Positions 1 through 13,200 of a DNA stretch of 13,200 nucleotides are shown here, in pieces. Numbering within the stretch: position 1 is the stretch's first letter; every line of letters begins with the position of its first letter. This stretch comes from Bacterioplanes sp. (GTDB lineage: Bacteria > Pseudomonadota > Gammaproteobacteria > Pseudomonadales > Oceanobacteraceae), in the NCBI GenBank assembly GCA_014859445.1, contig JACUUC010000046.1:1-13200 (forward strand). Reading direction: 5' to 3'. The notes below the pieces were generated by a model. It was not told where the DNA came from and made no database searches. It worked only from the letters and a program-made list of their open reading frames with translations. The position numbers and the translations under genes were made by a program.

Positions 1-45
1 AGGCTTCTTTCAGCCTGACGGGTTTGCCAGCTTCGCTGGGCAAAC

Positions 46-80
46 AAAAAAAGCCACGGCACGTATGCAGTGGCTTTTTC
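46..80 (-). terminator. Rho-independent (bidirectional-looking) terminator downstream of fadE
   Basis: Arms AAAAAGCCAC (48-57) and GTGGCTTTTT (70-79) are inverted repeats, with an inner GCA/TGC pairing. On the minus strand the GC stem GCCAC...GTGGC is followed by TTTTTTTGTTTG. It lies about 50 nt after the fadE stop codon (132-134). A further imperfect hairpin sits at 22-44 (GTTTGCCAG/CTGGGCAAAC). Confidence 0.8.
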
Positions 81-131
81 TGAGTGGCGTAGATGACCGA
101 TGTTTATTGAGACAGCGGCATCTTGGCTGCC

Positions 132-2579
132 CTAATCGTTGTGCAACACCACTTTGTCTTTGTGACGTGCAGGTTCATCAAAGGCAAAGTCATCCACAAT
201 CAACATATCCAACACTTCCGCTTCGAAGGTTTTCATAAAGGCGGCTTCGTCTGCACTGATCAAACCGGCTTCGGCTGATGCCGCAAATCGTTCCTCAGGA
301 TGCAATGCCGTCATTGGGATATCACCTTGCGCATACGCTTTGCTGGCTATGCGATAAATTGCTTCGGCTTTGTCGTAATCACGCAACAGCGCGTTGTAAC
401 GCGCCAGCGGATTTTCAACAGCACCGTCTTCTTGCGTGTCCCACGTGTCTTCAATCAAGTAGCTGCGCAAAGGCGTATCACTGGAGATGTCGTTGGCAAT
501 GGCCGACGTTAATTCATCTTCGGGCATCGGCCAGCAACGACCGAATGGCATCACAATGGCGCGTAGTTTGAACGCCACCAAACGATTGGGCAGGTTATCC
601 AGCACACCGCACACGGCATTTTCTAAGCGATGCAGTAAAAACGCCGCGCTATAGCGCATCAGAGCTTCTTCACCGGCCACTTTGTTGCCTTCATGCCAGT
701 GCTTTAACACCATCGAGAGCAAGTACAAGTTTGATAAAATATCACCCAAACGCCCAGACAACAGTTCGCGTTGCTTCAGTGTTGCGCCCAGCATAGTCAT
801 TGCCGCGTCGGACAATAGCCCCAAAACGGCACTGAAACGATTCACGGCTTTGGCATACGGAGCGGCGGCCGAATCAAATGGGTTATCGCCCGTGGGCACA
901 CCCAACGCGGCGGTGAAAGCACGTGCAGCGTTGCCCATGATCAAACCGACATGACCAAAGAAGGCGGTATCGAATGCATCAATGTCGTCGTTGTTCTTCG
1001 CTTCTAACTCCGCCAATACCCATGGATGGCAGCGAATAGCCCCTTGACCAAAAATCATCAAGCAGCGCGTCATGATGTTCGCACCCTCAACGGTTATGGC
1101 CACTGGCGTGGCGGAAAAGCCAATACCCAAATAGTTGCGAGGCCCCAGTGTCACCGCACGACCACCATGCACATCCATGGCGTCCATCATGATTTGACGC
1201 TGAAACTCCGTTAACTGGCTTTTCAAAATCGCCGATGGTACGGCCGGTTTTTCGCCGTTATCAATCATGTTAGCGGTTTGTGAAACCGTCGCTCGGGCGA
1301 TGTACGCCATCGACGCCATGCGCGCAAGCGGCTCTTGCACCCCTTCCATATTCGCCACCGAGGTATTGAACTGACGACGAATGCGGGTAAAGCCACCAGA
1401 CCAACCGACCGCATAGCGACCAGAGCCACTGGCACCCGACGGTAAGGTAATGCAGCGACCAACCGACAAACATTCCACCAGCATGCGCCAGCCTTGGCCA
1501 GCCATATCCACACCACCGATGATCCAATCCAAAGGAATGAAGACGTCCTTGCCTTTGATCGGGCCGTTCATAAACGGACTGCCAATGGGGTGGTGGCGAC
1601 GACCAATTTCCATGCCTTTGGTATCACGCGGAATCAAGGCGCAGGTAATGCCAATGTCTTTTTCCTCGCCCAACAGGCCATCAGGGTCAAACATGCGGAA
1701 CGCCAAACCAACCACGGTGGCAACCGGCGCCAAGGTAATCCAACGCTTTTCAAAGTTAAGACGAATGCCCAGAACCTCTTTGCCGTCAAATTCGCCTTTA
1801 CAAACAATGCCGGTATCCGGAATGGAAGTCGCGTCCGAACCGGCGCGAGGCCCAGTTAAACCGAAACAGGGAATTTCACGACCATCAGCCAAACGCGGTA
1901 AGTAATGATTTTTTTGCTCATCGGTGCCGTACTTAACTAATAACTCGCCGGGCCCTAATGAGTTCGGCACACCGACAGTGGACATCAAGGTTTCATTGGC
2001 GGCCAGTTTTTGTAATACCGCCGATTGTGCTTTGGCGGAAAAATGTAAGCCGCCATATTCGGTGGGAATGATCATGCCGAAGAATTTTTCTTTCTTCAAA
2101 AAATCCCACAATTCTTTCGGCATATCAGCGCGCTCAACGCCAATTTCCCAGGCATTGCACATGGAAACGGCTTTTGAACACTGATTGTCTAAAAACGCTT
2201 GTTCTTCGTCGGTTAACCCCGAATACCGATTATCCAGTAACTGATCCCAATTCGGACGCCCTGAAAACAACTGGCCATCCCAACCCACGGTACCGGCATC
2301 CAGCGCGACTTGTTCGGTCGGTGACACTTTAGGGGCGATTTTTTTGAACAAAGAGAAAATTTTCGGCGTCAACCACGTTTTGCGATACGCGGGCAAACCC
2401 GCCACGGCCGTTACACCGGCTCCTATCAAGAAAAGAATGGCCAACAACGGGCTACTGAAATAAAACCCGACAACCGCCAAGGCAATAAGAGCAGCAATGC
2501 TGGCAACAGCCCCTAACTCTCGTCGCAAAATCGTCAGCATGACGACTAGTGCAATACCAATAACCAACAAGTGATTCAT
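132..2579 (-). CDS. fadE: Acyl-CoA dehydrogenase, FadE type (membrane-anchored, about 815 aa)
   Basis: The track ORF starts at TTG 2597. I prefer ATG 2579 (MNHLLVIG...), which is preceded by AAGGAG at about 6 nt. The N-terminus has hydrophobic TM segments, followed by an acyl-CoA dehydrogenase core (..MIIPTEYGGLHFSAKAQSAVLQKLA.., ..CFGLTGPRAGSD..) and a long C-terminal extension. Length and layout match enterobacterial FadE (about 814 aa). Confidence 0.9.
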   Translation of the reverse strand: MNHLLVIGIALVVMLTILRRELGAVASIAALIALAVVGFYFSSPLLAILFLIGAGVTAVAGLPAYRKTWLTPKIFSLFKKIAPKVSPTEQVALDAGTVGWDGQLFSGRPNWDQLLDNRYSGLTDEEQAFLDNQCSKAVSMCNAWEIGVERADMPKELWDFLKKEKFFGMIIPTEYGGLHFSAKAQSAVLQKLAANETLMSTVGVPNSLGPGELLVKYGTDEQKNHYLPRLADGREIPCFGLTGPRAGSDATSIPDTGIVCKGEFDGKEVLGIRLNFEKRWITLAPVATVVGLAFRMFDPDGLLGEEKDIGITCALIPRDTKGMEIGRRHHPIGSPFMNGPIKGKDVFIPLDWIIGGVDMAGQGWRMLVECLSVGRCITLPSGASGSGRYAVGWSGGFTRIRRQFNTSVANMEGVQEPLARMASMAYIARATVSQTANMIDNGEKPAVPSAILKSQLTEFQRQIMMDAMDVHGGRAVTLGPRNYLGIGFSATPVAITVEGANIMTRCLMIFGQGAIRCHPWVLAELEAKNNDDIDAFDTAFFGHVGLIMGNAARAFTAALGVPTGDNPFDSAAAPYAKAVNRFSAVLGLLSDAAMTMLGATLKQRELLSGRLGDILSNLYLLSMVLKHWHEGNKVAGEEALMRYSAAFLLHRLENAVCGVLDNLPNRLVAFKLRAIVMPFGRCWPMPEDELTSAIANDISSDTPLRSYLIEDTWDTQEDGAVENPLARYNALLRDYDKAEAIYRIASKAYAQGDIPMTALHPEERFAASAEAGLISADEAAFMKTFEAEVLDMLIVDDFAFDEPARHKDKVVLHND

Positions 2580-2806
2580 AGTAACTCCTTTCAGCAATTG
2601 AACTGACTTGAATGAGCTTTGACACTAGCAGGAGATGAGAACAGATGCCAGCTGGCCTAATAAGAAAATACGCCAGAGCAAGTCAAGACACGTTATGTCC
2701 ATAGTCAGAAAATCAAGCCCCACCAATTTATGAGCTATACTGATAAAACTCGGGTTAATGAAATCATCATTCACCCACTGCACTACTCCATGGAGGATCG
2801 TCACGC
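2580..2806. promoter_or_regulatory. Divergent intergenic region between fadE and the small ValRS-C-like ORF (promoters not mapped)
   Basis: This is 227 bp of non-coding DNA between two divergent starts that both have good SD sequences. It contains TTGACA (about 2620) and TATACT (about 2737), but these are not at promoter spacing. I found no convincing FadR- or PsrA-type palindrome. Confidence 0.3.
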
Positions 2807-3028
2807 ATGAGCGCACCGTTAACCAAAACCGATGACATACATCACATCCAGACAAAAATTGAGCGCATCGAAAGCGACATTCAACGCATTACCAACAAAC
2901 TCAACAACGATGGCTTTATCGCCAGAGTGCCAGCGGCCATGATTGAAAATGAACAAAAGAAAATGGCTCAGTTTGAGCGGGAAAAACGCGAACTCGAAAT
3001 ACAAATGCGTTTAATCAGTAACGCTTAA
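2807..3028 (+). CDS. Small stand-alone protein resembling the C-terminal coiled-coil domain of valyl-tRNA synthetase
   Basis: ATG 2807 is preceded by GGAGGA (2792-2797, 9-nt spacer). The 73-aa product contains ..IERIESDIQRITNKLNNDGFIARVPAAMIENEQKKMAQFEREKRELEIQ... This follows the remembered ValRS C-terminal pattern (KL-N-x-GF-x-x-[KR]-AP-x-x-V/I-x-x-E-x-x-K, then a heptad coiled coil). No catalytic ValRS sequence lies upstream. Confidence 0.6.
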   Translation: MSAPLTKTDDIHHIQTKIERIESDIQRITNKLNNDGFIARVPAAMIENEQKKMAQFEREKRELEIQMRLISNA

Positions 3029-3085
3029 ATCCACAGACTATCCTCTAAAAAACATCAAACGAGTTTTACTAAGTCCGTCCGCTCG

Positions 3086-3979
3086 CTACTCCAAAAAGCG
3101 CTGCCGGATAGCCCCGCTGACTGCGGTCAGTGGCACGATGATGCTTAGCTCATAGGCCAAGCCAAAATCCTCATCCAAGGCGGCATCGTCGAACCAGATG
3201 CCGTTGCCCACACTTAAATACGACTGCAAAATGGGCGGCAGACGGCAGCCATAGAGCTTGAGCAGTTGCTGCAACTGCCGGATACGCCCGTCTGGGCTCA
3301 ACTCTGCCCAGCCACGGCACTCCAGCGTATGTGCTACCGCGTAATTCAGGCCGGTTTTTGCCATCATCATCGGCTGCGTCGGGGTATACAGCTGCTGGCA
3401 AAACTGCACCATGCAGGCAATGGCTTCTTGACCCAGACTTTGATAGAGCGAAACATTGCCAAAAAAGTACTGCAGCTGTGGGTGGATACGGGCTAAAGCT
3501 CCCAGCCCGGCCCATAACGCAAAGAAACCCAGGACACGGGCCTTAGCACTGGTATTGACCACCGAACGGCCCAGCTCAATGCCATAGGGCAACACCTGGC
3601 TGCAAAAAGCCTTGCTGTAATCAAACAGCTGGCTGGTACGTAACAAGGCATGGCCATGCTGTGCTGCTTGCCATCCTAACTGGTAGCGGTAAATAGCCAC
3701 CAACTCCAACCTAGCCGGATCCCACACCAGCAACTGGTAATAGGCATGTTCACCATAATCCAGTGCGTCCAGATCACGCGCCAGATTACGGCCGGCACCG
3801 GCACTGCGAAACATCAATTCGCGTAAACGGCCAATCTCCAGCATAGTCACTGGGATCCTATCTGCCTGAGCGCTGAATACCAGCAAACCACGAATGCTGG
3901 CAATGGGTTCAAGCTGTGCCAGCTCCTGTGCAATCAACTTAGTCGGCTCGGCGGCTGCAACTGGGCTTACCATCGGCAT
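3086..3979 (-). CDS. GNAT-family N-acyltransferase, OlsB/GlsB-like ('putative hemolysin' COG3176 type)
   Basis: ATG 3979 is preceded by AGGAGGA at 5 nt, inside the 3' end of the upstream gene (41-nt overlap). Motifs: IGRLRELMFRSAGAG..DLDALD..HAYYQLLVWD...LVAIYRY, and later ..IELGRSVV...LWAGLGAL...YFFGNVSLY. These are typical of N-acyl amino acid synthases that pair with a PlsC-like O-acyltransferase. Confidence 0.75.
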   Translation of the reverse strand: MPMVSPVAAAEPTKLIAQELAQLEPIASIRGLLVFSAQADRIPVTMLEIGRLRELMFRSAGAGRNLARDLDALDYGEHAYYQLLVWDPARLELVAIYRYQLGWQAAQHGHALLRTSQLFDYSKAFCSQVLPYGIELGRSVVNTSAKARVLGFFALWAGLGALARIHPQLQYFFGNVSLYQSLGQEAIACMVQFCQQLYTPTQPMMMAKTGLNYAVAHTLECRGWAELSPDGRIRQLQQLLKLYGCRLPPILQSYLSVGNGIWFDDAALDEDFGLAYELSIIVPLTAVSGAIRQRFLE

Positions 3980-5549
3980 CGGGTTCCTCCTGATAAATAG
4001 TGGGTAGTTGATAGCAACGGCGTTTCAACCAGGCGATACGCTGCCGATCGGTTTCGGCCAGAGCGTCCAGTTCGACGACATGCATCGGAATATCAACATA
4101 CAGTCGAGGTGTACGGTTGGCTGGCTTTAGCATTTCCCGTACCAGCAACAGCATTTCCAGATTGGCCTGAATACCCAGACTGGTTCGTAGCCAGGCCAAG
4201 GTATAGAACCAAGTCGAATTCTGACTTTGCAGATGCAACACGGTCAGACTGCGCTGCTGGCGCCTGGCCAATGTCACCGTCAACTTGGACCAATTGCCAT
4301 CGTCCAACTGACCTTTGTTGCTCTTTCTGGCCGTGCGACCAGCCGGAAAAATCAACAGAGGGGCGTCGCTGGCAAAAGCAGCCTGAACCATTGGCAGCGC
4401 ATCTTTAGGCTTGGCAAATACCGGGATCGACACAATGCGCCCAGCCAGCTGCTGCACTTCGGTCAGTACTTCGTTGGCCAGTACCTGCAAATTTGGATAA
4501 CGCTTTTGCAGTACACTGATCAGCAACAAGCCATCAATGCCACCGGTCGGATGGTTGCAGACAAACACCGGCCGGTCTGCAGCTGCCGGCCAGCGGCAGG
4601 CGATGACGTCCGGAGTTAACTGCAAATGCTGCAGGGCTACATCACAAAAGCGCTCAACCGGCAGCCGGTTGAGCCGCTCCAACCTCTGATTTAACGCCTT
4701 TTCCGCCAACAGCCAGCGCAGCAAATCCCACTGCCAGCCTTTTAGTTGGCTGGCTAGCGTTGGGTTATAGCGGCTAAGCAGGGCCTGCACATCCAACCGG
4801 CTGCTAAAATAGTCTTCGGATACTACAGGCTGTTTCAGCGGCAGTTCCAGGCAGTGGCTGGCATCCACCTGATGGGTGGACGGATGCCCATCCCAATACT
4901 GCATACTAATCTTGCCTGCTTCGATAGTCAGTTGTGTGATACTGACGGTCTGTACCTGGCTACGCTGCATGGCAATGCCGCTAAAGGCGCTGAATGGTCC
5001 GGGCCGGCGATGCAGTTGCTGCTGGGTTTGCAGTGACGGTGAGCGGGCCATAGCCCGCTGCCAATGCCAGGCTCTGAGCCTCGGGATCACCCTAGGTAAA
5101 ACACTGGAACTGGATAACGGCGAGTTTGGTGCCAGCTGCTGACGAAGCTGGCTGCCATCCCAATGCCACAGCAGCGGCTCCTGTTGTCCAACAAAGAGCA
5201 GCAAGCGAAAAGGGGCATAGCAGCGTAACTGCTCTGGTTGCAATGAAGCGTCCAGCATTTGCCAGTCCGAGCTATGCGCCAGTGCCCGTAGAAGCAGACC
5301 ACGACTGCGGCGGATAGCGGCATCCGGCTGATACGCGGCAGCATAATCGTTGAGCAGACAAAACACCCGGCCTTGCTCATTGGCCGCTACCCAGCTGCCA
5401 CCACCGTCTGGATCGATGGGGATGACGGCGTCCACACCGTTCTGACTAAAGCGCTGGGGCGCATGCGCCCGGGCGCGGATTTTTCGCTCATCCCGGTTGA
5501 ACAGGATATGCAGCTGTCCTTGCTGGTACCACCAGCTTAGGGTGCACAT
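3939..5549 (-). CDS. Fusion protein: N-terminal NRDE (TANGO2-like) domain plus C-terminal lysophospholipid/aminolipid O-acyltransferase (GlsA/OlsA-like)
   Basis: Continuous 536-aa ORF. Residues 1 to about 235 carry MC(2)TLSWW...ILFNRDER...DPDGGGSWVA...RSRGLL...YAPFRLLLF, the NRDE family signature with the N-terminal Cys. Residues about 245-520 carry ..WDLLRWLLAEKALNQRL.., CNHPTGGIDGLLL (acyltransferase His/Asp block) and LLIFPAGRTARK (FPxG(T/R) block). The start overlaps the DinB gene by 13 nt. Confidence 0.75.
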   Translation of the reverse strand: MCTLSWWYQQGQLHILFNRDERKIRARAHAPQRFSQNGVDAVIPIDPDGGGSWVAANEQGRVFCLLNDYAAAYQPDAAIRRSRGLLLRALAHSSDWQMLDASLQPEQLRCYAPFRLLLFVGQQEPLLWHWDGSQLRQQLAPNSPLSSSSVLPRVIPRLRAWHWQRAMARSPSLQTQQQLHRRPGPFSAFSGIAMQRSQVQTVSITQLTIEAGKISMQYWDGHPSTHQVDASHCLELPLKQPVVSEDYFSSRLDVQALLSRYNPTLASQLKGWQWDLLRWLLAEKALNQRLERLNRLPVERFCDVALQHLQLTPDVIACRWPAAADRPVFVCNHPTGGIDGLLLISVLQKRYPNLQVLANEVLTEVQQLAGRIVSIPVFAKPKDALPMVQAAFASDAPLLIFPAGRTARKSNKGQLDDGNWSKLTVTLARRQQRSLTVLHLQSQNSTWFYTLAWLRTSLGIQANLEMLLLVREMLKPANRTPRLYVDIPMHVVELDALAETDRQRIAWLKRRCYQLPTIYQEEPDADGKPSCSRRAD

Positions 5550-6028
5550 CGTTTGTGATACTCTTGGGTCGAGCTGTGCACACCGGCATCCTCTGGCCAG
5601 GGGTAGCCCCAGGGATCCAGCATGGCATGGATCAACGCCAGATGATGCACTGCATGGCTGGCAACAAAATCCAGCTCACGCTGCAGGCTGGTGTAGGTGG
5701 TGCCTTCGGCAAATTGATAGCTCAGCTGGGTATCCAGCTCATCGGTTTCCAAGCACTTCAGCCAGCTTTGCAAACGCTCTATCCAATGCAACGCTTTTTG
5801 CGGATCGCTTTGCACGCCTTCATCTCGCAACCGCAGCCGGTAGTCCAGCTGCTGACTGTTCGATGCCAGCCACAGCTGCTGGTAGTGATCCAACACATGA
5901 CGAATATGTTTGCCGACTGAAGGCTCACCGGGCCAGTCTTTGACCTGCCGGTAATGTTCAGGCTGCACCTGCCGTAGAATAAGACGGATAAAGTCCAACT
6001 GGTGCAGGTTTTGTTCAATCACCGTCAT
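5537..6028 (-). CDS. DinB-fold (DinB_2/YfiT-like) putative metal-dependent protein
   Basis: 163 aa. The N-terminal helix motif VGKHIRHVLDHYQQL and the C-terminal FVASHAVHHLALIHAML fit the His-triad pattern of the DinB superfamily. It overlaps the upstream gene by 14 nt and the downstream gene by 13 nt. Confidence 0.7.
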   Translation of the reverse strand: MTVIEQNLHQLDFIRLILRQVQPEHYRQVKDWPGEPSVGKHIRHVLDHYQQLWLASNSQQLDYRLRLRDEGVQSDPQKALHWIERLQSWLKCLETDELDTQLSYQFAEGTTYTSLQRELDFVASHAVHHLALIHAMLDPWGYPWPEDAGVHSSTQEYHKRCAP

Positions 6029-6263
6029 GCGATTCTGTCCTTTGAATGGTTAAATCGTTTAGCCGCTGTTTGGCGGCACTGTAACTGGCGACCGAGAAGG
6101 GCACCAAGTAATTCAGTAGGATCAGGCCAAAGCGCCAGGGTGCTTCACCGGCAATAGCTTCCCATTGATTGATTAGGTTCAGCAAAGTCCCCACCACAAG
6201 TGCCACCTTAATGGCATTGCTGAACACCTCGGGATGGCGTAATTGTTGCAAAAAGTCTTTCAT
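6015..6263 (-). CDS. Small two-TM membrane protein, NrtS-like (putative nitrate/nitrite transporter family)
   Basis: 82 aa. IKVALVVGTLLNLINQ...LILLNYLVPFSVASYSA resembles the remembered NrtS family signature. There is an ATGA start/stop overlap with the HD-GYP gene. The functional assignment is tentative. Confidence 0.5.
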   Translation of the reverse strand: MKDFLQQLRHPEVFSNAIKVALVVGTLLNLINQWEAIAGEAPWRFGLILLNYLVPFSVASYSAAKQRLNDLTIQRTESHDGD

Positions 6264-7183
6264 CCGCGAGCAAACCTGACCAGTTGTTCCAGCGGGATAT
6301 GCGACACCGACTCCTCAATCAACCGCTTAATTAATAGTTTATCTGCTTTAGGTTGCAGTTGCTGGGCCGAAACCTTGCGACCGGTTGGCTTGACCGTCCA
6401 TTGGTCGTGCTCAGCACACAACTCCATCTCGCTGTGACAGACACCACAAGCCAACAGATCACCCGGTTTGTCCTCGCTGTGTTGCAGTACCGTCGGACCA
6501 CAGTGCGGACAGGTGTGCAAGGGAATGCCATAATCACTGTGCCCCATAATGGCATCCACTTCACCTCGTTCAGCCAACGCCAGCAAATGGTTGCACCAGA
6601 ACTGGTTAAACTGTCGGCCGGACTCCTCACGCAGAATACCAAGCACTTTTTCCAATGGCATAGGTTTGCGGTAGGAGCGTAAACTGGTCATGGCATCAAA
6701 GGCATCACATACCCCGATGATGGCCGCATCGGTTGGGATCATGCTGGCAGTCAGGCCATGCGGATAGCCACGACCATCCGGCCGCTCGTGGTGCAACTCG
6801 ACCGCAGCGGCGACCAGATGCCCTAGCGGATGCCCTGCCAGCATGCGGCCACCAGCCTCCGGGTGCGTTTGGATCACAGCAAACTCACTGTCATTCAACT
6901 TGCCGGTCTTATTTAAAATTGCATCTGGGATGGCGACTTTGCCCAGATCATGCAAAAAACCGCCGAGCGTCACCCGGGCAATATCGGCCTCCGGCAAACC
7001 ACCGGCTCTGGACAATAAATTGGCATAACGCGACACCCGCCACAAATGTCCGCCGGTGTAGGGATCTTTGGCTTCCACAAACCAGGCCATCACCATCAGA
7101 CTGGCCAACAGATCTTTGCTTAACTGACCGGCATCCGCCGGTAACGCTTTTTCTGCTTGAAACTGTTGAAACCATCTGAGCAT
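6260..7183 (-). CDS. HD-GYP domain c-di-GMP phosphodiesterase with C-terminal CxxC...CxxC zinc-ribbon extension
   Basis: ATG 7183 is preceded by a GGGGG SD at 5 nt. Motifs: GGFLHDLGKVAIPDAILNKTGKL (HD), HHERPDGRGYPHGL (GYP), VCDAFDAMTSLRSYR. The C-terminal extension carries HTC225PHC228...AC246GVC249HSEMELC256. Confidence 0.85.
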   Translation of the reverse strand: MLRWFQQFQAEKALPADAGQLSKDLLASLMVMAWFVEAKDPYTGGHLWRVSRYANLLSRAGGLPEADIARVTLGGFLHDLGKVAIPDAILNKTGKLNDSEFAVIQTHPEAGGRMLAGHPLGHLVAAAVELHHERPDGRGYPHGLTASMIPTDAAIIGVCDAFDAMTSLRSYRKPMPLEKVLGILREESGRQFNQFWCNHLLALAERGEVDAIMGHSDYGIPLHTCPHCGPTVLQHSEDKPGDLLACGVCHSEMELCAEHDQWTVKPTGRKVSAQQLQPKADKLLIKRLIEESVSHIPLEQLVRFARG

Positions 7184-7210
7184 GATAGCCCCCTGTTAAG
7201 TTAACCCTGC

Positions 7211-7663
7211 TTATCTTTTTGCGTGAATCTTCAAAAGCTTAGCAAAAGACTCCCGCTTGACTGCATCGGCCAGATCATCTTTGCAAAAATACAGCACTGT
7301 ACCAGCCTGTCCGGGCTGGGCTGAACCAATCACCTGGCCAGCGGCAGCAATGGCTGCCGCTGCGTGATGCTGCTGCATCAGATGCAAAATAGTCTTTTGC
7401 ACCCGCTCCAATGGCAGCAAACTGGCAAACACCACCGGCAGGCTTGGCTTAAGCTGACGTATTGCCAACAGCATCTCTTCGGCCGACTGCGGCAGCGGCG
7501 ACGACAAAGCCAAAGAAATAACGGCAACATCGGCGTTGGCCAGTTCGTCATTCAGCGCATCCAGCTGTGACAGACGGTTAAAACTAAAACCCTGCTGCTG
7601 CAGAAAAGGAGCCATCTCACTAACAATAAAAGGATGGGGCCTGGCAAGTAAAATATGTGGCAT
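7211..7663 (-). CDS. Hypothetical protein (150 aa), first gene of the operon; possibly a receiver-like alpha/beta fold lacking the acidic pocket
   Basis: ATG 7661-7663 has TAGGAAAAA upstream, and the gene ends 27 nt before the HD-GYP gene. I recognised no family signature. The alternating hydrophobic strand/helix pattern (HILLARPHPFIV.., DVAVISLAL.., LPVVFASLL..) loosely resembles a CheY-like fold, with Ser where the phospho-Asp would be. Confidence 0.5.
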   Translation of the reverse strand: MPHILLARPHPFIVSEMAPFLQQQGFSFNRLSQLDALNDELANADVAVISLALSSPLPQSAEEMLLAIRQLKPSLPVVFASLLPLERVQKTILHLMQQHHAAAAIAAAGQVIGSAQPGQAGTVLYFCKDDLADAVKRESFAKLLKIHAKR

Positions 7664-7757
7664 GATTTTTCCTAAGGTTGAATTGTAGTTGCATTGTGCT
7701 GCAAACTGCTTAGGCTAAAGGATTCATTAATCTTAGGAAGTTCTGCTGCGTACCACA
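7664..7757. promoter_or_regulatory. Divergent promoter region between the six-gene operon and the AraC-family gene
   Basis: 94 bp between divergent ATGs. It contains a TACAAT -10-like hexamer on the minus strand (7687-7682) and the inverted repeat TTGCA-N6-TGCAA (7689-7704). There are three CTTAGG/CCTAAG copies (7671-7676 inverted, 7709-7714, 7732-7737). Confidence 0.4.
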
Positions 7758-7793
7758 ATGACCAAAACACCGGCCTTATCTACCGAAACACCA
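7753..7793 (+). promoter_or_regulatory. Direct-repeat pair of the ACCAAAACACCG motif overlapping the AraC start codon (candidate operator/activator site)
   Basis: CCACAATGACCAAAACACCG (7753-7772) matches 11898-11917 at 18/20 positions. A degenerate second copy, ACCGAAACACCA, lies at 7782-7793, exactly 21 bp downstream. This is the same spacing as copies 1 and 2 in the bufA/trx intergenic region. Confidence 0.55.
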
Positions 7794-8678
7794 GAAGCCT
7801 TAGAACAGTTATTAGCACAATTGGCTTTTGGCTCGGAGCTGCATTTTGAGTCTGGCTTTTGTGACCACTGGAACCTGCTCACCACCAAATCCAGCAAAGC
7901 AGCCCTTCATGTGGTGACGCAGGGCCAACTTTGGATGGCGATTCCTGGTCGGCTTCAGGAACAAGTGCTACTGGAAGCCGGCGATGCTATTTTTTTCAGC
8001 CACAGTTTCCGGCATTGGCTAAGCGACGAGCCAGTGGATGAACACACCAGCGAAGTCGACTTTGCCAACTTCTGTGTGCCCAATCATGTTGAACGTGGTC
8101 TGGTCTGCTACGACATTGCGGTCGAATCCCCTCTCACCGCCAATCTGTTTCAGGTGATGCCGGACTACATTCACCTGCCTGCCAACCAGCAGTCCGGACG
8201 GCTCAGTCCACTGGTGCAACTAATCCAGCAAGAAGCCAAATCCCGTCAGCCTGGTTATCAGGCGGCTATCAGTCGCTTGAGCGATGTGGTGGTGTTGCAC
8301 TTGTTGCGTCAGGTGCTCAGTGACGACAGCATGCAACAAGGCCTGCTGGCAGCACTAAAAGATCCGGCGCTACGCCGGGTGCTACTGGCCATTATGGATG
8401 AACCGGGCGCTAACTGGACGGTGGAAAGCATGGCCGCTCTGGCTTTTTTGTCCAAAAGCGCCTTTGCCGAGCGCTGCCATAAAGTGATGGCTATGACTGC
8501 AAAAGCCTTGTTGGATAAGCTTAGGCTACAACGCTGCCGTTATCTGCTTATCCATACAGAGCTGAGTCTAGAACTCATTGCCGAACAAATTGGCTATCAA
8601 TCAGCAACGGCATTTATCCGCTTTTTTAAGCAACAAGAAAGCTTATCGCCCGGCGAATTCAGAGCATTGCATAACTAA
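7758..8678 (+). CDS. AraC/XylS-family transcriptional regulator with N-terminal cupin (AraC-binding-like) domain
   Basis: 306 aa. The N-terminal part (ALHVVTQGQLWMAIPG...LLEAGDAIFFSHSFRHWLSD) is cupin-like. The C-terminal dual HTH includes ..WTVESMAALAFLSKSAFAERCHKVM.. and ..LIAEQIGYQSATAFIRFFKQQESLSPGEFR. It is divergent from the 7663 operon. Confidence 0.85.
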   Translation: MTKTPALSTETPEALEQLLAQLAFGSELHFESGFCDHWNLLTTKSSKAALHVVTQGQLWMAIPGRLQEQVLLEAGDAIFFSHSFRHWLSDEPVDEHTSEVDFANFCVPNHVERGLVCYDIAVESPLTANLFQVMPDYIHLPANQQSGRLSPLVQLIQQEAKSRQPGYQAAISRLSDVVVLHLLRQVLSDDSMQQGLLAALKDPALRRVLLAIMDEPGANWTVESMAALAFLSKSAFAERCHKVMAMTAKALLDKLRLQRCRYLLIHTELSLELIAEQIGYQSATAFIRFFKQQESLSPGEFRALHN

Positions 8679-9241
8679 TCGCTGCCAGCTCCTCCTGTAG
8701 CGCGCGCTTCAGACAGTGAAAAGGATTTAACACGCTCAAACGGCAAGTGATCTCCTTCATCGGTACCATAATACGCCATACTAATACGTCCATTGCGGTC
8801 GATAAGAAAATCTGCTGGCATAGTGGTCATGCGGCCTTTGATGCCCAGCGGCAGATAACCGCGCATCATAGCTCTAAGCAGAGTCGGCATGCGTAATAGC
8901 ATGCCCTTCACCACGCCCAGCAGTGAATACTCAATACCGTATTCCCAGTAGAATTGATTGCTCTCATCCGCCAGCACCGCAAAAGGCGCTTTATGACCGC
9001 TCGCATGATGCTGCAGATTATCCAGCGGCGAGTCAAATACCGCGACAATAGTGAAGTCGTCGGCAAATTCATTGAAGCGGGACACTAATTCATGCATGCG
9101 CAGATTGCAAAACGGACAACTGGCAAAGCGAAAGAAAGACAGCATAAAAGGTCGCCCCTCCAGACTTCTCGTGTCAAACAGCTGGCCATCAAGTGCTGGC
9201 AACATGACGTGCGTCAGCTTATCTCCGGGTTGACGTTTCAT
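8675..9241 (-). CDS. Peroxiredoxin-like / AhpC-TSA (redoxin) family protein, CPFC motif, no signal peptide
   Basis: ATG 9241 is preceded by AAGGAG at 7 nt. It has a thioredoxin-fold signature: RPFMLSFFRFASCPFCNLRMHEL...IVAVFDS...FAVLADE...PADFLIDRNG. It is the last gene of the DUF2282 operon. Its stop codon overlaps the stop codon of the convergent AraC gene. Confidence 0.75.
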   Translation of the reverse strand: MKRQPGDKLTHVMLPALDGQLFDTRSLEGRPFMLSFFRFASCPFCNLRMHELVSRFNEFADDFTIVAVFDSPLDNLQHHASGHKAPFAVLADESNQFYWEYGIEYSLLGVVKGMLLRMPTLLRAMMRGYLPLGIKGRMTTMPADFLIDRNGRISMAYYGTDEGDHLPFERVKSFSLSEARATGGAGSD

Positions 9242-9286
9242 GACATAACTCCTTTTAGTAATTTTTAGTTAACTGCAGCTGAAGCA

Positions 9287-9823
9287 TTACGACCGTTTTT
9301 CAAGCCCCAGCCAGCGATCCAGCGAAAACAATCCTGGGCCGCGCGCGAGCAACATCAATAATAATGCCGCCCACCAGGCCGCAGGATTCCAAAAATGTGT
9401 CCAATCCGGATAAACGGCAAATTGAATAAAAAGGGTCATGCCCAGTAAACCCAATGCAGCAAAACGGCTAAATAGTCCCAGGATTAATAGCAATGGCAGC
9501 AGCACTTCCACCACACCTGCAGTTATTGCCATCGTTTCAGCCAGCCATTGGCCGAAAGCGCCCTCAGAGTATTCCAGCGTATCGGCATCGCACAATAACA
9601 AAGCACCGGGCCGAACAGGGTCCGGACAGAAAAATTCGTACATAAAAAGTTCGTATTTATTAACGTCAAACTGTAAAAAGCCATCCCATTTTGACAGGCC
9701 AGATTGTAAGAAAACCCGGGCCACCAACAAGCGCAACGCCAGCAAAGCAAGTGGCTCCAGCCAGCGCTGTAAAAACTGAGCTAATTGGTAGTAACGTGTC
9801 TGAATAGAAGTAACGAAAGTCAT
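9287..9823 (-). CDS. DoxX-family membrane protein (BufD/HvfX/GigT-like component of DUF692 RiPP clusters)
   Basis: ATG 9823 is preceded by AAGGAG at 7 nt. 178 aa with multiple TM helices. LALRLLVARVFLQSGLSKW is a DoxX signature. It sits immediately downstream of the DUF2063 gene (20-nt gap). Confidence 0.8.
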   Translation of the reverse strand: MTFVTSIQTRYYQLAQFLQRWLEPLALLALRLLVARVFLQSGLSKWDGFLQFDVNKYELFMYEFFCPDPVRPGALLLCDADTLEYSEGAFGQWLAETMAITAGVVEVLLPLLLILGLFSRFAALGLLGMTLFIQFAVYPDWTHFWNPAAWWAALLLMLLARGPGLFSLDRWLGLEKRS

Positions 9824-9843
9824 CAGTGGACTCCTTTAAAGCG

Positions 9844-10620
9844 TTAACGTATGCACAGCAGACCATGCTGTAACAACCCGGCAAAGCTGCCGCTGACATC
9901 GAAATGCTCATCCACCCTGAGAGCTGCAGATACCGCATCATGCAGGCAACAAGACTGAGTATTTAAAGCTTGCAGAAAGTGCCATTCTGCGGCAGACAAT
10001 ACCCGATACTGCAATGTATGATCGGCTTGTCGCCATAGCGCCCGACGGTTATGCTCTAAAGCAACCGTCGCCTGCTGCTGATAGCTGGGATCATCACGTT
10101 GCTGTACCCACAATGTCCAAACATCAAAATGCGTTTCAAGCAGTTCAACGCTTGAACACAATCCTAGTTTGAGCTTTTCAATATTGGTTCCCGCGTTGGC
10201 CAAATGCGAGATATCCTCCGCCGAAACTGCTTTTTGATCCTCGGCCAGCAAGCAATTCAGCCAACAACGTTCTAGCCTAGCCAGATCGCTCAACCACGGG
10301 CACTGATGTCGGGGCAACTGCGTTTGCAACCAATCAGGAAATTGCTGACCATACCAGGCCAGCACGGCATGCTCAGGCCGATGAATAAAAACATAATCTC
10401 TGGCCAATTGGCGGAACTGCTCGTCTGCCAACACCGAGCCACTGACAGGAAAGTTGTCAGCTAAAGCCTGCACTGATGCCTTCATGCTGCTGTTGCGATA
10501 CACTTGCAATCGTCGCCAATCTTCAGGTTTAGCTTGTAACCAGTGAGCCAGCGTGGTCTCAGCTTCACCTTGCAAATATGCAATAAACTGCTGATAAAAA
10601 TGAGGCTTAGCCTGCTGCAT
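9844..10620 (-). CDS. DUF2063-family protein (BufC/HvfC-type partner of the MNIO enzyme)
   Basis: 258 aa. The start overlaps the DUF692 gene by 14 nt. The N-terminal QQFIAYL...RLQVYRNS...L.DNFP region is typical of DUF2063. Its position directly 3' of DUF692 is the canonical pairing. Confidence 0.75.
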   Translation of the reverse strand: MQQAKPHFYQQFIAYLQGEAETTLAHWLQAKPEDWRRLQVYRNSSMKASVQALADNFPVSGSVLADEQFRQLARDYVFIHRPEHAVLAWYGQQFPDWLQTQLPRHQCPWLSDLARLERCWLNCLLAEDQKAVSAEDISHLANAGTNIEKLKLGLCSSVELLETHFDVWTLWVQQRDDPSYQQQATVALEHNRRALWRQADHTLQYRVLSAAEWHFLQALNTQSCCLHDAVSAALRVDEHFDVSGSFAGLLQHGLLCIR

Positions 10621-11479
10621 CTGCTATCTCCAGATAAGGTCGCAACACGGCATGAAGCCGCTCTCGCTCATTCAGTAAATCATCCAGAGCAGGAATACGA
10701 TCATCCCACTCCAATAACACGGGCCTCGGACCAAATCGCTGTAAGGCATAATCCAGTAAATTCAGGATGTCTTCTTGTGGTGCGTGATCGTGGCTATCAA
10801 TCAACAAACGATTGCCTTCAACCGGATCGGCTGAAAAACCTGCCACATGCAGCTCACCGACTAAATGCGCAGGGATTTGATCCAAATATTGCTTAGCATC
10901 CACACCACAATTGGTTTGGCTCAGGTATAAATTGGTTATGTCCAGCAACAAACCACAGCCGGTCCGTTGTGTTAACTCCACCATAAAATCAGCTTCATGC
11001 ATTTCATGCTGAAGCCCAACATAGTGGGTGGGGTTCTCGAGCAAAATAGCTCTGCCAATCGCTTCCTGATACTGATGTACTCCGTCCGCTAATTGCTGCA
11101 AGGCTGCCCGAGTTCGTGGAAAAGGCAATAAATCTGCAAAATATGCGTGCTGCACTCCTGACCACACCGCATGCTCAGAAATCAACGTTGGCTGAATGTT
11201 ATCTACCAGTGCTTTAACCCAAGACAGGTACTGAGTGCTGAGGGGTTCCGGCCCACCAAGAGAAGCACCAACACCATGTAGGCTAAGCGGAAATCGTTCC
11301 GCCATCGCCTGCAGAGCTGCCAGCCTAATTCCGCCGATGCCACAATAGTTTTCCGTATGCACTTCATACCAGATCCCTTTTGAAGCAACATCCAGTACCT
11401 CTGGATAGTGCTGAAGCTTAAGGCTTATACCAGTACTAAGCACGGATCCTGGCAGGCTGTTTGCGTTAAAATCTGCCAT
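10607..11479 (-). CDS. DUF692 / MbnB-like multinuclear non-heme iron oxidase (MNIO) RiPP maturase
   Basis: 290 aa. Motifs: GISLKLQHY...WYEVHTENY...PLSLHGVGASLGG...ISEHAVW...DLLPFPRT...AILLENPTHY...GCGLLLDITNLY...GELHVAGF...LIDSHDH...PVLLEWDD. This is the TIM-barrel DUF692 signature. Its start codon shares one nucleotide with the precursor stop codon (TGATG). Confidence 0.9.
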   Translation of the reverse strand: MADFNANSLPGSVLSTGISLKLQHYPEVLDVASKGIWYEVHTENYCGIGGIRLAALQAMAERFPLSLHGVGASLGGPEPLSTQYLSWVKALVDNIQPTLISEHAVWSGVQHAYFADLLPFPRTRAALQQLADGVHQYQEAIGRAILLENPTHYVGLQHEMHEADFMVELTQRTGCGLLLDITNLYLSQTNCGVDAKQYLDQIPAHLVGELHVAGFSADPVEGNRLLIDSHDHAPQEDILNLLDYALQRFGPRPVLLEWDDRIPALDDLLNERERLHAVLRPYLEIADAAG

Positions 11480-11844
11480 CAGGAGTTGTTACGATCCAGT
11501 TCAGATTTCGATGCCTGACCGTGTGGGGTGATGACATACTCGCAAACCCCTCTTGGAGTGAAAGTCCAAGCGTTGCCTTGAAAATCAATAGTTGATGAAC
11601 CTTCACAGCTAGTGCCAGCTCCGGCCCGGCAATCGTTCTGCCCCGCCAGGGCAATGCCATAGCATTTGTCACGGCGGCCCCGTACTCGCTCGCCGGCCAT
11701 CCATGTTTCAAAGTTTTGTTGCACCGCCTCAGGCGCATTTTCTGCCAGGCTAAGTTGAGCATTCGGTCCAGCCTGTGCCACACCCACAGCACTAGCCATA
11801 GCTACACCTGCCAGCAATAATTTGGTTAAGTTAGGTTGTTTCAT
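11479..11844 (-). CDS. DUF2282 / BufA1-type secreted Cys-containing RiPP precursor (bufferin-like metallophore)
   Basis: ATG 11844 is preceded by AGGAGA at about 7 nt. It has a Sec signal peptide ([25 protein letters not shown]|G). The core [43 protein letters not shown] carries four Cys (residues 61, 72, 80, 101; codons at 11662-11664, 11629-11631, 11605-11607, 11542-11544). This matches the DUF2282 pattern. Confidence 0.85.
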
Positions 11845-11897
11845 GTGTATTTCTCCTGTTGTGAATACACTTAAAGTCTAGTCAAGTCGTGCAAGAG

Positions 11898-11938
11898 CCA
11901 CACTAACCAAAACACCGCAGCAATCGACCAAAACACTT
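11898..11938 (+). promoter_or_regulatory. Two direct copies of ACCAAAACAC(CG) spaced 21 bp, upstream of bufA1 (candidate regulator binding sites)
   Basis: Copy 1 is CCACACTAACCAAAACACCG (11898-11917). Copy 2 is ACCAAAACAC (11927-11936). The core starts at 11907 and 11928, so the spacing is 21 bp. The sites lie 54-94 bp upstream of the bufA1 ATG. Confidence 0.55.
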
Positions 11939-11961
11939 TAACTACCACTGAACAAAACGAA

Positions 11962-11974
11962 CCGGTGTTTTGGT
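11962..11974 (-). promoter_or_regulatory. Inverted third copy of the motif (ACCAAAACACCGG on the minus strand), upstream of trx-ccdA
   Basis: The plus strand CCGGTGTTTTGGT (11962-11974) is the reverse complement of ACCAAAACACCGG, an exact 13-mer match to 7761-7773. It is embedded in the imperfect palindrome AACAAAAC-N8-GTTTTGGT (11951-11974) and lies about 91 bp upstream of the trx ATG. Confidence 0.5.
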
Positions 11975-12064
11975 GGATTCAACGGGTGCGGTGGTTAATG
12001 ACGAAAATCCTTATCTCTCTCACACTGGTTGGCGAATCATCCACAACCTGAAGAGGACTTCTTT

Positions 12065-12496
12065 ATGAAAACCATGATTAATGTCGCGATTGCAGTCATC
12101 TCCCTGGCTGCAGCCGCTTTTTTCCTGCTGAGCCCGGCCAATGCTTCCACCGAGCATCTGCTCAAACACAAACAAGCCTTTACTGAAACCTCGTTTCGGC
12201 AAGCGCAAGCTGAAAACCGACTGATTTTGATCGATGTGTATGCGCCCTGGTGCCCGACCTGTCGCCGCCAGCACACCGTTTTAAATGATTATTTTGCCCA
12301 CAACCCCAACAGCGACATCCTGGTGCTGCAAGTGGATTTTGATAACCAGAAAGACTGGGTCACTTACTTCAAAGCGCCACGTCAGTCAACTCTGGTGTTG
12401 TATCGTGGTGAAGAGCAACTTTGGTTCAGTGTGGCCCAAACCCTTGAAAGTACCATCTTTGCCGAACTGAAAAAACACGACCAGGGCGCGGACTGA
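12065..12496 (+). CDS. Secreted/anchored thioredoxin-family protein (WCPTC active site)
   Basis: The track ORF begins at TTG 12029. I prefer ATG 12065, with AAGAGGA (12051-12057) 7 nt upstream. It has a signal peptide (MKTMINVAIAVISLAAAAFFLLSPANA|S) and a thioredoxin motif (LIDVYAPWCPTCRRQ). Confidence 0.8.
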   Translation: MKTMINVAIAVISLAAAAFFLLSPANASTEHLLKHKQAFTETSFRQAQAENRLILIDVYAPWCPTCRRQHTVLNDYFAHNPNSDILVLQVDFDNQKDWVTYFKAPRQSTLVLYRGEEQLWFSVAQTLESTIFAELKKHDQGAD

Positions 12497-12498
12497 TT

Positions 12499-13200
12499 AT
12501 GGAATTTACCGCCATCCCACTGGCACTGATAGCAGGCGTGCTGAGCCTGTTATCACCTTGCGTTCTGCCGATGATACCGGCGGTTACGGCATCGGCCATG
12601 CGGGCATCCAAAACCGGTGTCTGGTTTTTGGCTGCTGGCCTCGCCTTTACCTTTGCTCTGGGTGGCTCTTTGCTGACCTACCTGCTGCTCAGCGCCGGTT
12701 TATCGCCCGATATTATGCGTACCTTTGCCGCAGTCTTTATGCTGGTGATGGGGTTGGTGCTGGTGGTTGGCTGGCTGAATCAGCAATTTAGTCTGCTGTT
12801 GTCACGCCTGACTAGCCGGTTACCTGCTGGCGGCCAGTTGGCAGACTCCTCAGACCGCCCAGTCTTTCAGTTTGTGATCGGTGGCTCTTTGGGCCTGGTC
12901 TGGCTACCGTGCGTAGGACCCACGCTAGGTGCTGCCATTGCGCTGGCATCGACCGGGCAGAATATTCTGATGTCGTTTACCGTCATGCTTGCTTTTGGAC
13001 TTGGTACAGCGCTGCCTTTAGTTGGTATAGGCTATGCCGCAGGCACAAAACTCAGCACCCTTCGCACTTCAGGCAAAGTTGGCAGATTGCTGCTCGGCTA
13101 TGCGTTATTACTGATCGCACTAATGATATTTACCGGCTTTGACAAAGTGATGGAGACGTGGGCTATTAAGCATCTTCCAGACTGGGCAACGACCATATAA
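12499..13200 (+). CDS. ccdA: CcdA/DsbD-family transmembrane thiol-disulfide electron transporter
   Basis: 233 aa and polytopic. The two hallmark Cys-Pro motifs are LSLLSPCVLPMIP and WLPCVGPTLG. It starts 2 nt after the trx stop codon, and the complete ORF ends with TAA at 13198-13200. Confidence 0.85.
   Translation: MEFTAIPLALIAGVLSLLSPCVLPMIPAVTASAMRASKTGVWFLAAGLAFTFALGGSLLTYLLLSAGLSPDIMRTFAAVFMLVMGLVLVVGWLNQQFSLLLSRLTSRLPAGGQLADSSDRPVFQFVIGGSLGLVWLPCVGPTLGAAIALASTGQNILMSFTVMLAFGLGTALPLVGIGYAAGTKLSTLRTSGKVGRLLLGYALLLIALMIFTGFDKVMETWAIKHLPDWATTI

Follow-up and report, generated by a model that had tools for sequence, protein, structure and literature searches.

Bufferins and captophorins are modified peptides that bind copper; their family, recognised only recently, is very large, and their clusters frequently encode a DoxX protein. 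In the buf1 operon of Caulobacter vibrioides (bufA1B1C1D1, CCNA_03363-03366), the multinuclear non-heme iron oxidase (MNIO) BufB and its partner BufC are sufficient for modification of the precursor, both in vitro and in E. coli; the product, which is 10 Da lighter and contains two 5-thiooxazoles and one disulfide, is exported via the Sec pathway to the periplasm, where it binds both Cu(I) and Cu(II), and DoxX is dispensable for both the peptide modifications and copper tolerance (PMC11626156). Here we analyze a 13,200-nt stretch of a Bacterioplanes sp. genome (GCA_014859445.1, contig JACUUC010000046.1, positions 1 to 13,200; referred to as the window), which encodes the same four families in the same order, followed by a fifth gene for a redoxin. 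The best explanation overall, which we hold with moderate confidence, is that this would be a bufferin-1 cluster with a stress-regulated accessory redoxin that is linked to DoxX and does not serve peptide maturation.

Homologous DUF2282-DUF692-DUF2063-DoxX gene sets are known as the metal-induced gig operons of Cupriavidus metallidurans and Legionella pneumophila (PMC10304878, PMC5413113), none of which has been reported with a redoxin gene and whose regulation differs from that of the window. Clusters for EGKCG-type captophorins (the hvf/RpoE2 regulon of H. influenzae, the Neisseria gonophorin, and fontiphorin; PMC7907618, PMC13097082) likewise combine an MNIO, a DUF2063 protein, and DoxX with a precursor that carries a signal peptide, and are inducible by hypochlorous acid (HOCl). 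However, their precursors have EGKCG repeats instead of a DUF2282 domain, they are controlled by extracytoplasmic function (ECF) sigma factors, and their MNIO is only 31-35% identical to that of the window. Compared to Caulobacter buf1, the window additionally contains the redoxin gene after doxX, a divergent pair of genes for a periplasmic thioredoxin (Trx) and a DsbD-type protein, and a precursor in which a linker of ~35 aa joins the signal peptide to the DUF2282 domain, whereas the SigF/NrsF pair is absent and an AraC/Cupin_6 regulator with shared putative operator repeats is found instead. The combination of redoxin, putative AraC-type control, and divergent Trx-DsbD is an architecture not described in the accessible parts of the surveys of such clusters (PMC12452194, PMC11626156, PMC13097082).

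The bufferin-1 cluster and its fifth gene

An earlier annotation of the window (the original prediction) had described five co-directional open reading frames (ORFs) as an intact bufferin-1-type cluster extended by a redoxin gene. The ORF list and the sequence reproduce the coordinates and junctions of these minus-strand ORFs, and every one of the five proteins had a significant Pfam match in profile-HMM searches (Table 1). Based on the profile matches to the four core families, an MNIO_BufB score above the cutoff, and four invariant cysteines in BufA1, it is practically certain that the locus represents an intact cluster of the known kind for the biosynthesis of a bufferin-1 (captophorin). 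The precursor BufA1 scored 70.3 bits with Pfam PF10048 (cutoff 22.4) and had no match in NCBIfam; its cysteines C61, C72, C80, and C101, which lie in the DUF2282 domain, are invariant in 83 of 83 aligned homologues. As in the Caulobacter precursor with its four conserved cysteines, the N-terminus reads as a Sec-type signal peptide, with a basic n-region, a hydrophobic stretch, and cleavage between AQA and G. Residues 26-60 of gammaproteobacterial BufA1 proteins (about 11665-11769 in the window) form a conserved segment of ~35 residues, PNAQL..AENAPE.V...F..W..GE...GR.DKC, which is not discussed in the bufferin literature consulted. BufB, which like its Caulobacter counterpart fits the NCBIfam MNIO_BufB equivalog model (312.9 bits, cutoff 310), has invariant His, Glu, Asp, and Asn columns in an alignment of 17 sequences. 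BufC was matched in its N-terminal DUF2063 domain and scored 59.5 bits with NCBIfam HvfC, below the cutoff of 142; its C-terminus, where an RRE-like domain is expected, gave no match to the NGO1945_C/HvfC_C model. If the scheme established for the Caulobacter homologues is carried over, BufA1 would be synthesised with its Sec signal peptide, two of its four invariant cysteines would be oxidised to 5-thiooxazoles in the cytoplasm by BufB together with BufC, and the modified peptide would then be exported, form one disulfide, and buffer periplasmic copper.

The genes are tightly spaced, with a 1-nt overlap (TGATG) between bufA1 and bufB, a 14-nt overlap between bufB and bufC, and gaps of 20 nt before doxX and 45 nt before the redoxin gene. 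Both doxX and the redoxin gene are preceded by an AAGGAG Shine-Dalgarno (SD) sequence 7-8 nt 5' of the ATG. A scan of positions 8400-12200 for sigma-70-like promoters and intrinsic-terminator-like sites found neither in the doxX-redoxin spacer and its surroundings, and nothing convincing upstream of bufA. Predicted RNA folding of the spacer region was as stable as that of shuffled sequence (z = 0.02). Nothing in the sequence thus separates the redoxin gene from doxX, in agreement with the co-transcription that had been proposed. Given the 45-nt gap, the SD sequence, and a spacer in which the scan found no promoter- or terminator-like site, the redoxin gene is most probably the last gene of the operon and read from the buf promoter; its co-transcription with doxX in particular appears likely.

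Occurrence and neighbours of the redoxin

The frequency of the fifth gene was determined in a set of bufferin-1 loci obtained by a scan with an MNIO alignment, from which one genome per species and the best 80 loci were retained, all of which carry a BufA1 precursor gene. According to tblastn searches with the window proteins, BufA1 adjoins the MNIO in all 80 loci, DUF2063 follows the MNIO in 78, and DoxX lies downstream in 74, whereas a redoxin homologue was found within 6 kb in only one, that of Arsukibacterium. Among the co-directional ORFs located 3' of DoxX, 1 of 32 encodes a redoxin, and every other family detected by Pfam scans occurs in at most three. Redoxin as a general fifth gene of bufferin clusters was consequently rejected, and its placement outside the core gene set by the original prediction is confirmed. 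These counts agree with a published survey, according to which bufferin clusters very rarely contain further conserved genes (PMC12452194). As unrelated genes had to lie within an intergenic distance of ≤10 bp to be included in it, a gene 45 nt away would have been excluded; AhpC, Redoxin, Thioredoxin, and DsbD do not occur in the accessible portions of its text and supplements or of the supplement of PMC13097082.

The redoxin contains the motif SCPFC within a wider RFASCPFCN (R38-F-A-S-C42-P-F-C45), and its N-terminus (MKRQPGDKLTHV...) reads without a hydrophobic signal segment, both as originally noted. The active site of canonical peroxiredoxins (Prx) is PxxxT/SxxC with the peroxidatic cysteine. 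In contrast, the redoxin has RxxxCxxC, with Arg for Pro and Cys for Thr/Ser, an arrangement that is invariant in 45 family members. These features mark it as a CxxC protein of the Prx-like2 type (presumably PRX_like2 in CDD) that is cytoplasmic and differs from a standard peroxidase. The family comprises 938 matches with 60-74% identity across Gammaproteobacteria, Nitrospirota, Thermodesulfobacteriota, and Bacteroidota, and its invariant blocks are RFASCPFCN.R, FDSP..NL, MPADFL.D, and G.DEGDHL. An AlphaFold2 model (pLDDT 88) has a Thioredoxin/Prx fold, for which Foldseek returned Bcp4, AhpE, and BcpB as top matches (TM 0.65-0.72), and a two-helix, family-specific insertion of ~30 aa at about residues 107-126, which in the model contains the invariant R117; in canonical Prx, a conserved catalytic Arg is positioned at the active site. 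The closest solved folds (Bcp4, AhpE, and DsbE/ResA-type proteins) share 13-21% identity with the redoxin, and a sequence search of the PDB gave only two weak matches, both to the thioredoxin family. The best NCBIfam match was the SelL-related redox protein model NF040769. With this group, the redoxin shares the AhpC-TSA_2 signature, a CxxC whose second cysteine takes the peroxidatic position, and an insertion after the central strands, but its score of 64.8 bits is below the cutoff of 120 and it belongs to a tightly conserved family of its own. By this model, it is thus related to the SelL-related family, yet outside it.

A survey with the window's redoxin recovered 67 metagenomic loci. The commonest co-directional gene upstream of the redoxin encodes an AhpD-like CMD protein (10/51 by Pfam; 15 loci by tblastn), and the second commonest is doxX (6/51; L096, L098, L104, L109, L110, and L111). 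DoxX-redoxin pairs with gaps of 22-29 nt are present in L096 and L104, while in L109, L110, and L111 DoxX and redoxin are followed by a gene for a 144-aa protein, with gaps of about 3-30 nt (about 3 nt between DoxX and redoxin in L110). In L110 and L111, the DoxX-redoxin unit is divergent from an operon encoding an ECF sigma factor, an anti-sigma factor, DinB, a small TANGO2 protein, JmjC, an EGKCG precursor, an MNIO, and a DUF2063 protein; the opposite strand of L109 shows only DinB and TANGO2 homologues. The gene order in L161 (= L098) is ECF sigma, anti-sigma, EGKCG precursor, MNIO, HvfC, DoxX, and, after a gap of 247 nt, redoxin. Pairs of DoxX and redoxin are thus found with clusters of two precursor classes, DUF2282 and EGKCG, with L161 and L110 as EGKCG-type examples. 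The redoxin-linked DoxX proteins belong to three subtypes, which are 25-40% identical to each other, and the linked redoxins are no more alike among themselves than to unlinked ones, so that the pairing would have arisen repeatedly. In two samples (L154, 5665-6243; L155, 297-875), an in-frame chimera, which apparently arose from a DoxX-redoxin pair by deletion, joins the middle of DoxX to the C-terminal half of the redoxin, with loss of the CxxC. A relationship between the 144-aa gene of these marine units and the 150-aa gene of the window was dropped for lack of similarity.

Other members of the family have different neighbours. Homologues of HD_5 proteins were found near the redoxin in seven loci, with 37-53% identity to the HD protein of the window (49-53% in six of the seven), and AraC/Cupin_6 homologues in five. 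Both recur beside CMD-redoxin pairs (L126, L127, L134, and L113), with the order HD, AraC, and then divergent CMD-redoxin in the first three; the ECF/EGKCG/MNIO clusters of L150 and L153 have a TetR/CMD-redoxin unit as their neighbour. The remaining members are located beside a YHS-domain gene or in unrelated contexts. A family dedicated to MNIO clusters was rejected, as most members have no MNIO gene nearby. On the evidence of its neighbourhoods, the family is a general redox or antioxidant enzyme that has repeatedly been drawn to DoxX and to an AraC/HD stress neighbourhood.

Such an enzyme could also be a mere passenger at the bufferin locus, that is, a general antioxidant thiol peroxidase or thiol-disulfide reductase, usually paired with CMD, that was recombined next to its AraC/HD neighbours and is co-regulated with them. 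The commonest contexts (CMD-redoxin, TetR-CMD-redoxin, YHS-redoxin, and HD/AraC-CMD-redoxin) fit this explanation, as do the close relatives of the locus that lack the redoxin, the recombination patch described below, which includes the 3' end of the AraC gene, and loci L006-L008, where genes homologous to those for the 150-aa, 82-aa, Trx, and HD proteins of the window lie near a 69%-identical redoxin and the 6 kb examined on either side contain no buf gene. It does not readily account for DoxX directly upstream in six of about 48 informative loci, representing at least four separate lineages (three metagenomic recruitments and the window's own) and three DoxX subtypes, nor for the DoxX-redoxin gaps of about 3-29 nt in several loci, which suggest translational coupling. 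As this recurrent adjacency is hard to explain otherwise, we consider a functional tie to DoxX, and regard a passenger as rather unlikely.

The original prediction had instead proposed that the redoxin serves or protects the maturase. In such a role, it could re-reduce the MNIO iron cofactor, keep the precursor cysteines reduced, or scavenge peroxide from the O2-dependent enzyme. The redoxin gene shares an operon with bufB and bufC, whose products are likewise cytoplasmic, the substrates of MNIOs are cysteine thiols, and according to the title of a 2026 preprint the MNIO cofactor must be mixed-valent. Moreover, family members occur within 6 kb of an MNIO gene in L098, L110, L111, L150, and L153, far above chance at one to two MNIO genes per genome. 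However, the redoxin is absent from 79 of the 80 bufferin-1 loci and from the closest relatives, BufB and BufC suffice for modification (PMC11626156), and most family members have no MNIO gene nearby. Even where one is present, the redoxin of L110 pairs with DoxX on the strand opposite to the MNIO operon, and those of L150 and L153 belong to a TetR/CMD unit outside of it. The partners with which the redoxin recurs are DoxX, CMD, HD, and AraC/Cupin_6 proteins, not the MNIO. We thus did not retain the maturation role, which appears improbable; the comparative data speak rather for a partnership with DoxX or for plain stress co-regulation.

In the explanation that we prefer, the redoxin and DoxX would jointly carry out thiol or hydroperoxide redox chemistry on the cytoplasmic side of the membrane, as members of a copper/oxidant stress regulon and without a part in peptide maturation. 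The CMD-redoxin pairs suggest that the upstream gene provides the redox partner of the redoxin. CMD precedes the same redoxin family in many loci, as in AhpD/AhpC-type pairs, and DoxX holds this position in the window, which differs from such pairs in that it lacks a CMD gene and has a redoxin with CxxC instead of PxxxTxxC. DoxX may hence fill the role that the AhpD-like CMD has elsewhere, as redox partner or electron donor. A precedent, as cited in PMC7907618, is the membrane oxidoreductase complex DoxX-SseA-SodA of M. tuberculosis (Nambi et al. 2015), in which DoxX is likewise teamed with soluble antioxidant or thiol-handling enzymes. Its partners are a sulfurtransferase and a superoxide dismutase, its DoxX is distant, and no RiPP (ribosomally synthesised and post-translationally modified peptide) cluster is involved, whereas the partnership in the window is a putative one.

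Several observations weigh against this explanation. Most members of the redoxin family adjoin neither DoxX nor MNIO genes, and the family clearly works without them; likewise, the close relatives of the locus apparently manage without a redoxin at their bufferin locus. The 247-nt gap in L161 leaves space for a separate promoter, and in the window a promoter may lie inside doxX and be invisible to a simple sigma-70 scan. DoxX also lacks a conserved cytoplasmic cysteine (both cysteines of the DoxX in the window fall within a loop read as probably periplasmic), which makes a direct thiol relay to the redoxin unlikely, and coupling would need a quinone or complex formation. We therefore regard a DoxX-coupled function of the redoxin as tentative. 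The far-reaching version, in which DoxX and this Prx-like2 CxxC redoxin are the two components of a dedicated redox module in the membrane, with DoxX replacing CMD, that was repeatedly recruited to bufferin and captophorin clusters of two precursor classes and links, for example, the quinone pool to the reduction of cytoplasmic thiols or lipid hydroperoxides, is more doubtful still.

Origin of the redoxin gene

The closest named relatives of the locus are found in Arsukibacterium sp. (L001, L002, and L014), a metagenome-assembled genome labelled Aliidiomarina sp. (L009), and Alishewanella longhuensis (L016); the metagenomic genome L010 is a further close relative. The syntenic block that they share begins with the genes for DsbD/CcdA and periplasmic Trx, divergent from bufA1-bufB-bufC-doxX, and the convergent AraC/Cupin_6 regulator, and continues with the 150-aa gene, HD_5, the 82-aa gene, DinB_2, a TANGO2-acyltransferase, and a GNAT acyltransferase. 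In L009, L010, L012/L013, and L016, no gene separates DoxX from the convergent AraC gene, the two lying at most 9 nt apart and overlapping by up to 4 nt. Since these relatives run DoxX into AraC, the redoxin gene would be an insertion at the doxX/araC junction that is confined to the window and Arsukibacterium.

Pairwise sliding-window nucleotide identity was determined between the window and both Arsukibacterium (L001) and the redoxin-less L010. The flanks of the window (4000-8600 and 11600-13000) are closest not to Arsukibacterium but to L010, with 78-92% nucleotide identity, which compares to 54-71% across doxX-bufC-bufB. To Arsukibacterium, a background of 60-80% identity is interrupted at about 8400-9600 (AraC 3' end, redoxin, and 3' half of doxX) by a patch of 86-97%, and 109 of 111 nt match at the doxX-redoxin junction. 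The contrast between this patch and the background points to a recent recombination event involving the redoxin. The simplest reading of the alignments would be one gain followed by the recent transfer of the patch through homologous recombination, for which doxX and araC provided the arms: the gene would have entered the doxX/araC junction in an Arsukibacterium-like lineage and then reached the lineage of the window on the patch. The redoxin is thus very probably a lineage-specific accessory that was spread by recombination.

bufB and bufC are divergent from both L001 and L010 (54-77%); on this comparison, the maturase genes have a much higher rate of evolution or recombination than the genes next to them. 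In an Alishewanella-like metagenomic lineage (L012 and L013, 2016-4154), the Trx-DsbD/buf island adjoins a fragment of a Tn3-family transposase gene and a KfrA-like gene, which suggests that the island can be carried on mobile DNA or lie close to it. A search of a plasmid database with positions 7700-13200 gave only ~100 nt of similarity in the DUF2282 core and no sign of a plasmid-borne island.

Regulation and wider neighbourhood

Besides the recombinational origin of the redoxin gene, two features go beyond the original prediction, namely the AraC gene with its shared repeats and the divergent pair for periplasmic Trx and DsbD/CcdA.

Table 1 Coordinates and family assignments of the cluster genes, the neighbouring genes, and the 11-mer repeats in the window.
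Feature	Position	Strand	Length	Evidence or remarks
bufA1 (precursor)	11844-11479	-	121 aa	Pfam DUF2282/BufA1 1.3e-19
bufB (MNIO/DUF692 maturase)	11479-10607	-	290 aa	Pfam MbnB_TglH_ChrH 1.3e-84
bufC (DUF2063, PME1/HvfC-type partner)	10620-9844	-	258 aa	Pfam DUF2063 2.8e-19
bufD/doxX (DoxX-family membrane protein)	9823-9287	-	178 aa	Pfam DoxX 3.7e-13, DoxD 7.4e-05
redoxin gene (fifth gene)	9241-8675	-	188 aa	Pfam AhpC-TSA 3e-16, Redoxin 2.9e-12, AhpC-TSA_2 5.2e-06
doxX-redoxin spacer	9242-9286	-	45 nt	contains AAGGAG
AraC-family regulator gene (convergent)	7758-8678	+		Pfam Cupin_6 and HTH_18; stop overlaps redoxin stop by 4 nt
ACCAAAACACC tandem pair, AraC side	7761-7771 and 7782-7792	+		21-bp spacing; at annotated 5' end of AraC gene
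ACCAAAACACC copies, bufA/trx divergent intergenic region (11906-11974)	11906-11916, 11927-11937, 11964-11974	+, +, -		putative operator
periplasmic thioredoxin gene	12029-12496	+		WCPTC motif, signal peptide; Pfam Thioredoxin 1.9e-10
DsbD/CcdA-type membrane thiol-electron transporter gene	12499-13200	+		Pfam DsbD_2 3e-10, DsbD_TM 5.5e-10; presumably co-transcribed with the thioredoxin gene

The AraC gene is syntenic in all relatives of the locus. Its product scored 95.8 bits with NCBIfam RclR, below the cutoff of 400, and has only the Cupin_6 and HTH_18 architecture in common with this regulator. The 11-mer ACCAAAACACC, with one mismatch allowed, occurs five times in the window versus 0.33 expected, a number reached in none of 200 shuffles. 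In the intergenic region between bufA and trx, the first two copies are a tandem pair with 21-bp spacing and the third is inverted; the pair at the AraC gene is located 98-129 nt upstream of the divergent 150-aa gene and faces the 150-aa/HD operon. An alignment of the bufA/trx intergenic region from five lineages contains only three long invariant blocks, all of which are ACCAAAACACC copies. The full layout is kept in Arsukibacterium (L001), L010, and Alishewanella (L016), and L009 shows the AraC side only. Direct repeats two helical turns apart and a site at the regulator's own gene are typical of AraC-family regulators. The adjacent RclR-like AraC protein thus probably controls bufABCD-redoxin, trx-dsbD, and itself, although the AraC protein as binder of the repeats is inferred only from its adjacency and the 21-bp direct-repeat geometry, and the AraC-side copies lie inside the annotated ORF, where they encode TKTP and TETP, so that coding constraint may explain some of their conservation; their position may also point to a different start codon of the AraC gene or to an autoregulatory roadblock. 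On balance, an AraC regulon seems somewhat favoured.

Bufferin-type clusters in Caulobacter, Haemophilus, and Neisseria are regulated by ECF sigma/anti-sigma pairs (PMC11626156, PMC7907618), and no such pair was found at the window's locus. The DoxX operon of Haemophilus is HOCl-inducible (PMC7907618), which fits an oxidant-responsive regulator at the window locus. In two Saccharospirillum loci (L034 and L038, 4533-5334), a homologue of the AraC family, 29-30% identical to the window's regulator, is encoded directly upstream of bufA1 in the same direction; bufferin-1 operons under AraC-type control may hence exist beyond the Arsukibacterium/Alishewanella clade. A parallel between RclR and DoxX by way of E. 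coli RclC as a DoxX protein was not used, as no support for it was found in the literature consulted.

The Trx-DsbD pair is divergent from bufA1, and the intergenic region with the putative operator is common to both. The likely start of the thioredoxin gene is the ATG at 12065, homologues being 143 aa long. The pair is syntenic in Arsukibacterium (L002), L010, L012, and Alishewanella (L016), whereas the other 78 bufferin-1 loci lack it. It is reminiscent of the copper-related Scs system and might keep the cysteine thiols or thiooxazole thiolates of the exported peptide reduced.

On the other side of the AraC gene, a co-directional set (3086-7663, minus strand) encodes the 150-aa protein, an HD_5 protein that has a CxxC...CxxC ribbon at its C-terminus, a membrane protein of 82 aa, DinB_2, a fusion of TANGO2 and an acyltransferase, and an OlsB-like GNAT acyltransferase. 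Proteins homologous to DinB and TANGO2 are encoded inside the ECF/EGKCG/MNIO operon of L110, and those of the HD, 150-aa, and 82-aa proteins near the redoxin in L006-L008, which hints at a wider functional neighbourhood around the locus. Between these acyltransferase genes and an acyl-CoA dehydrogenase gene, a free-standing 73-aa ORF (2807-3028, plus strand) resembles valyl-tRNA synthetase solely in the tRNA-binding coiled-coil arm at the C-terminus of that enzyme (Pfam 8.1e-12).

If both the DoxX link and the AraC regulation failed, the locus would simply be another bufferin-1 cluster. If the regulation holds, it would represent a regulatory variant with an RclR-like AraC regulator and shared repeats in place of an ECF sigma factor. 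One family of CxxC redoxins located behind three DoxX subtypes, near both DUF2282- and EGKCG-type clusters, provides a testable partner of DoxX. A DoxX-redoxin module, if true, would provide the first mechanistic lead as to why these clusters encode DoxX, which peptide modification does not require.

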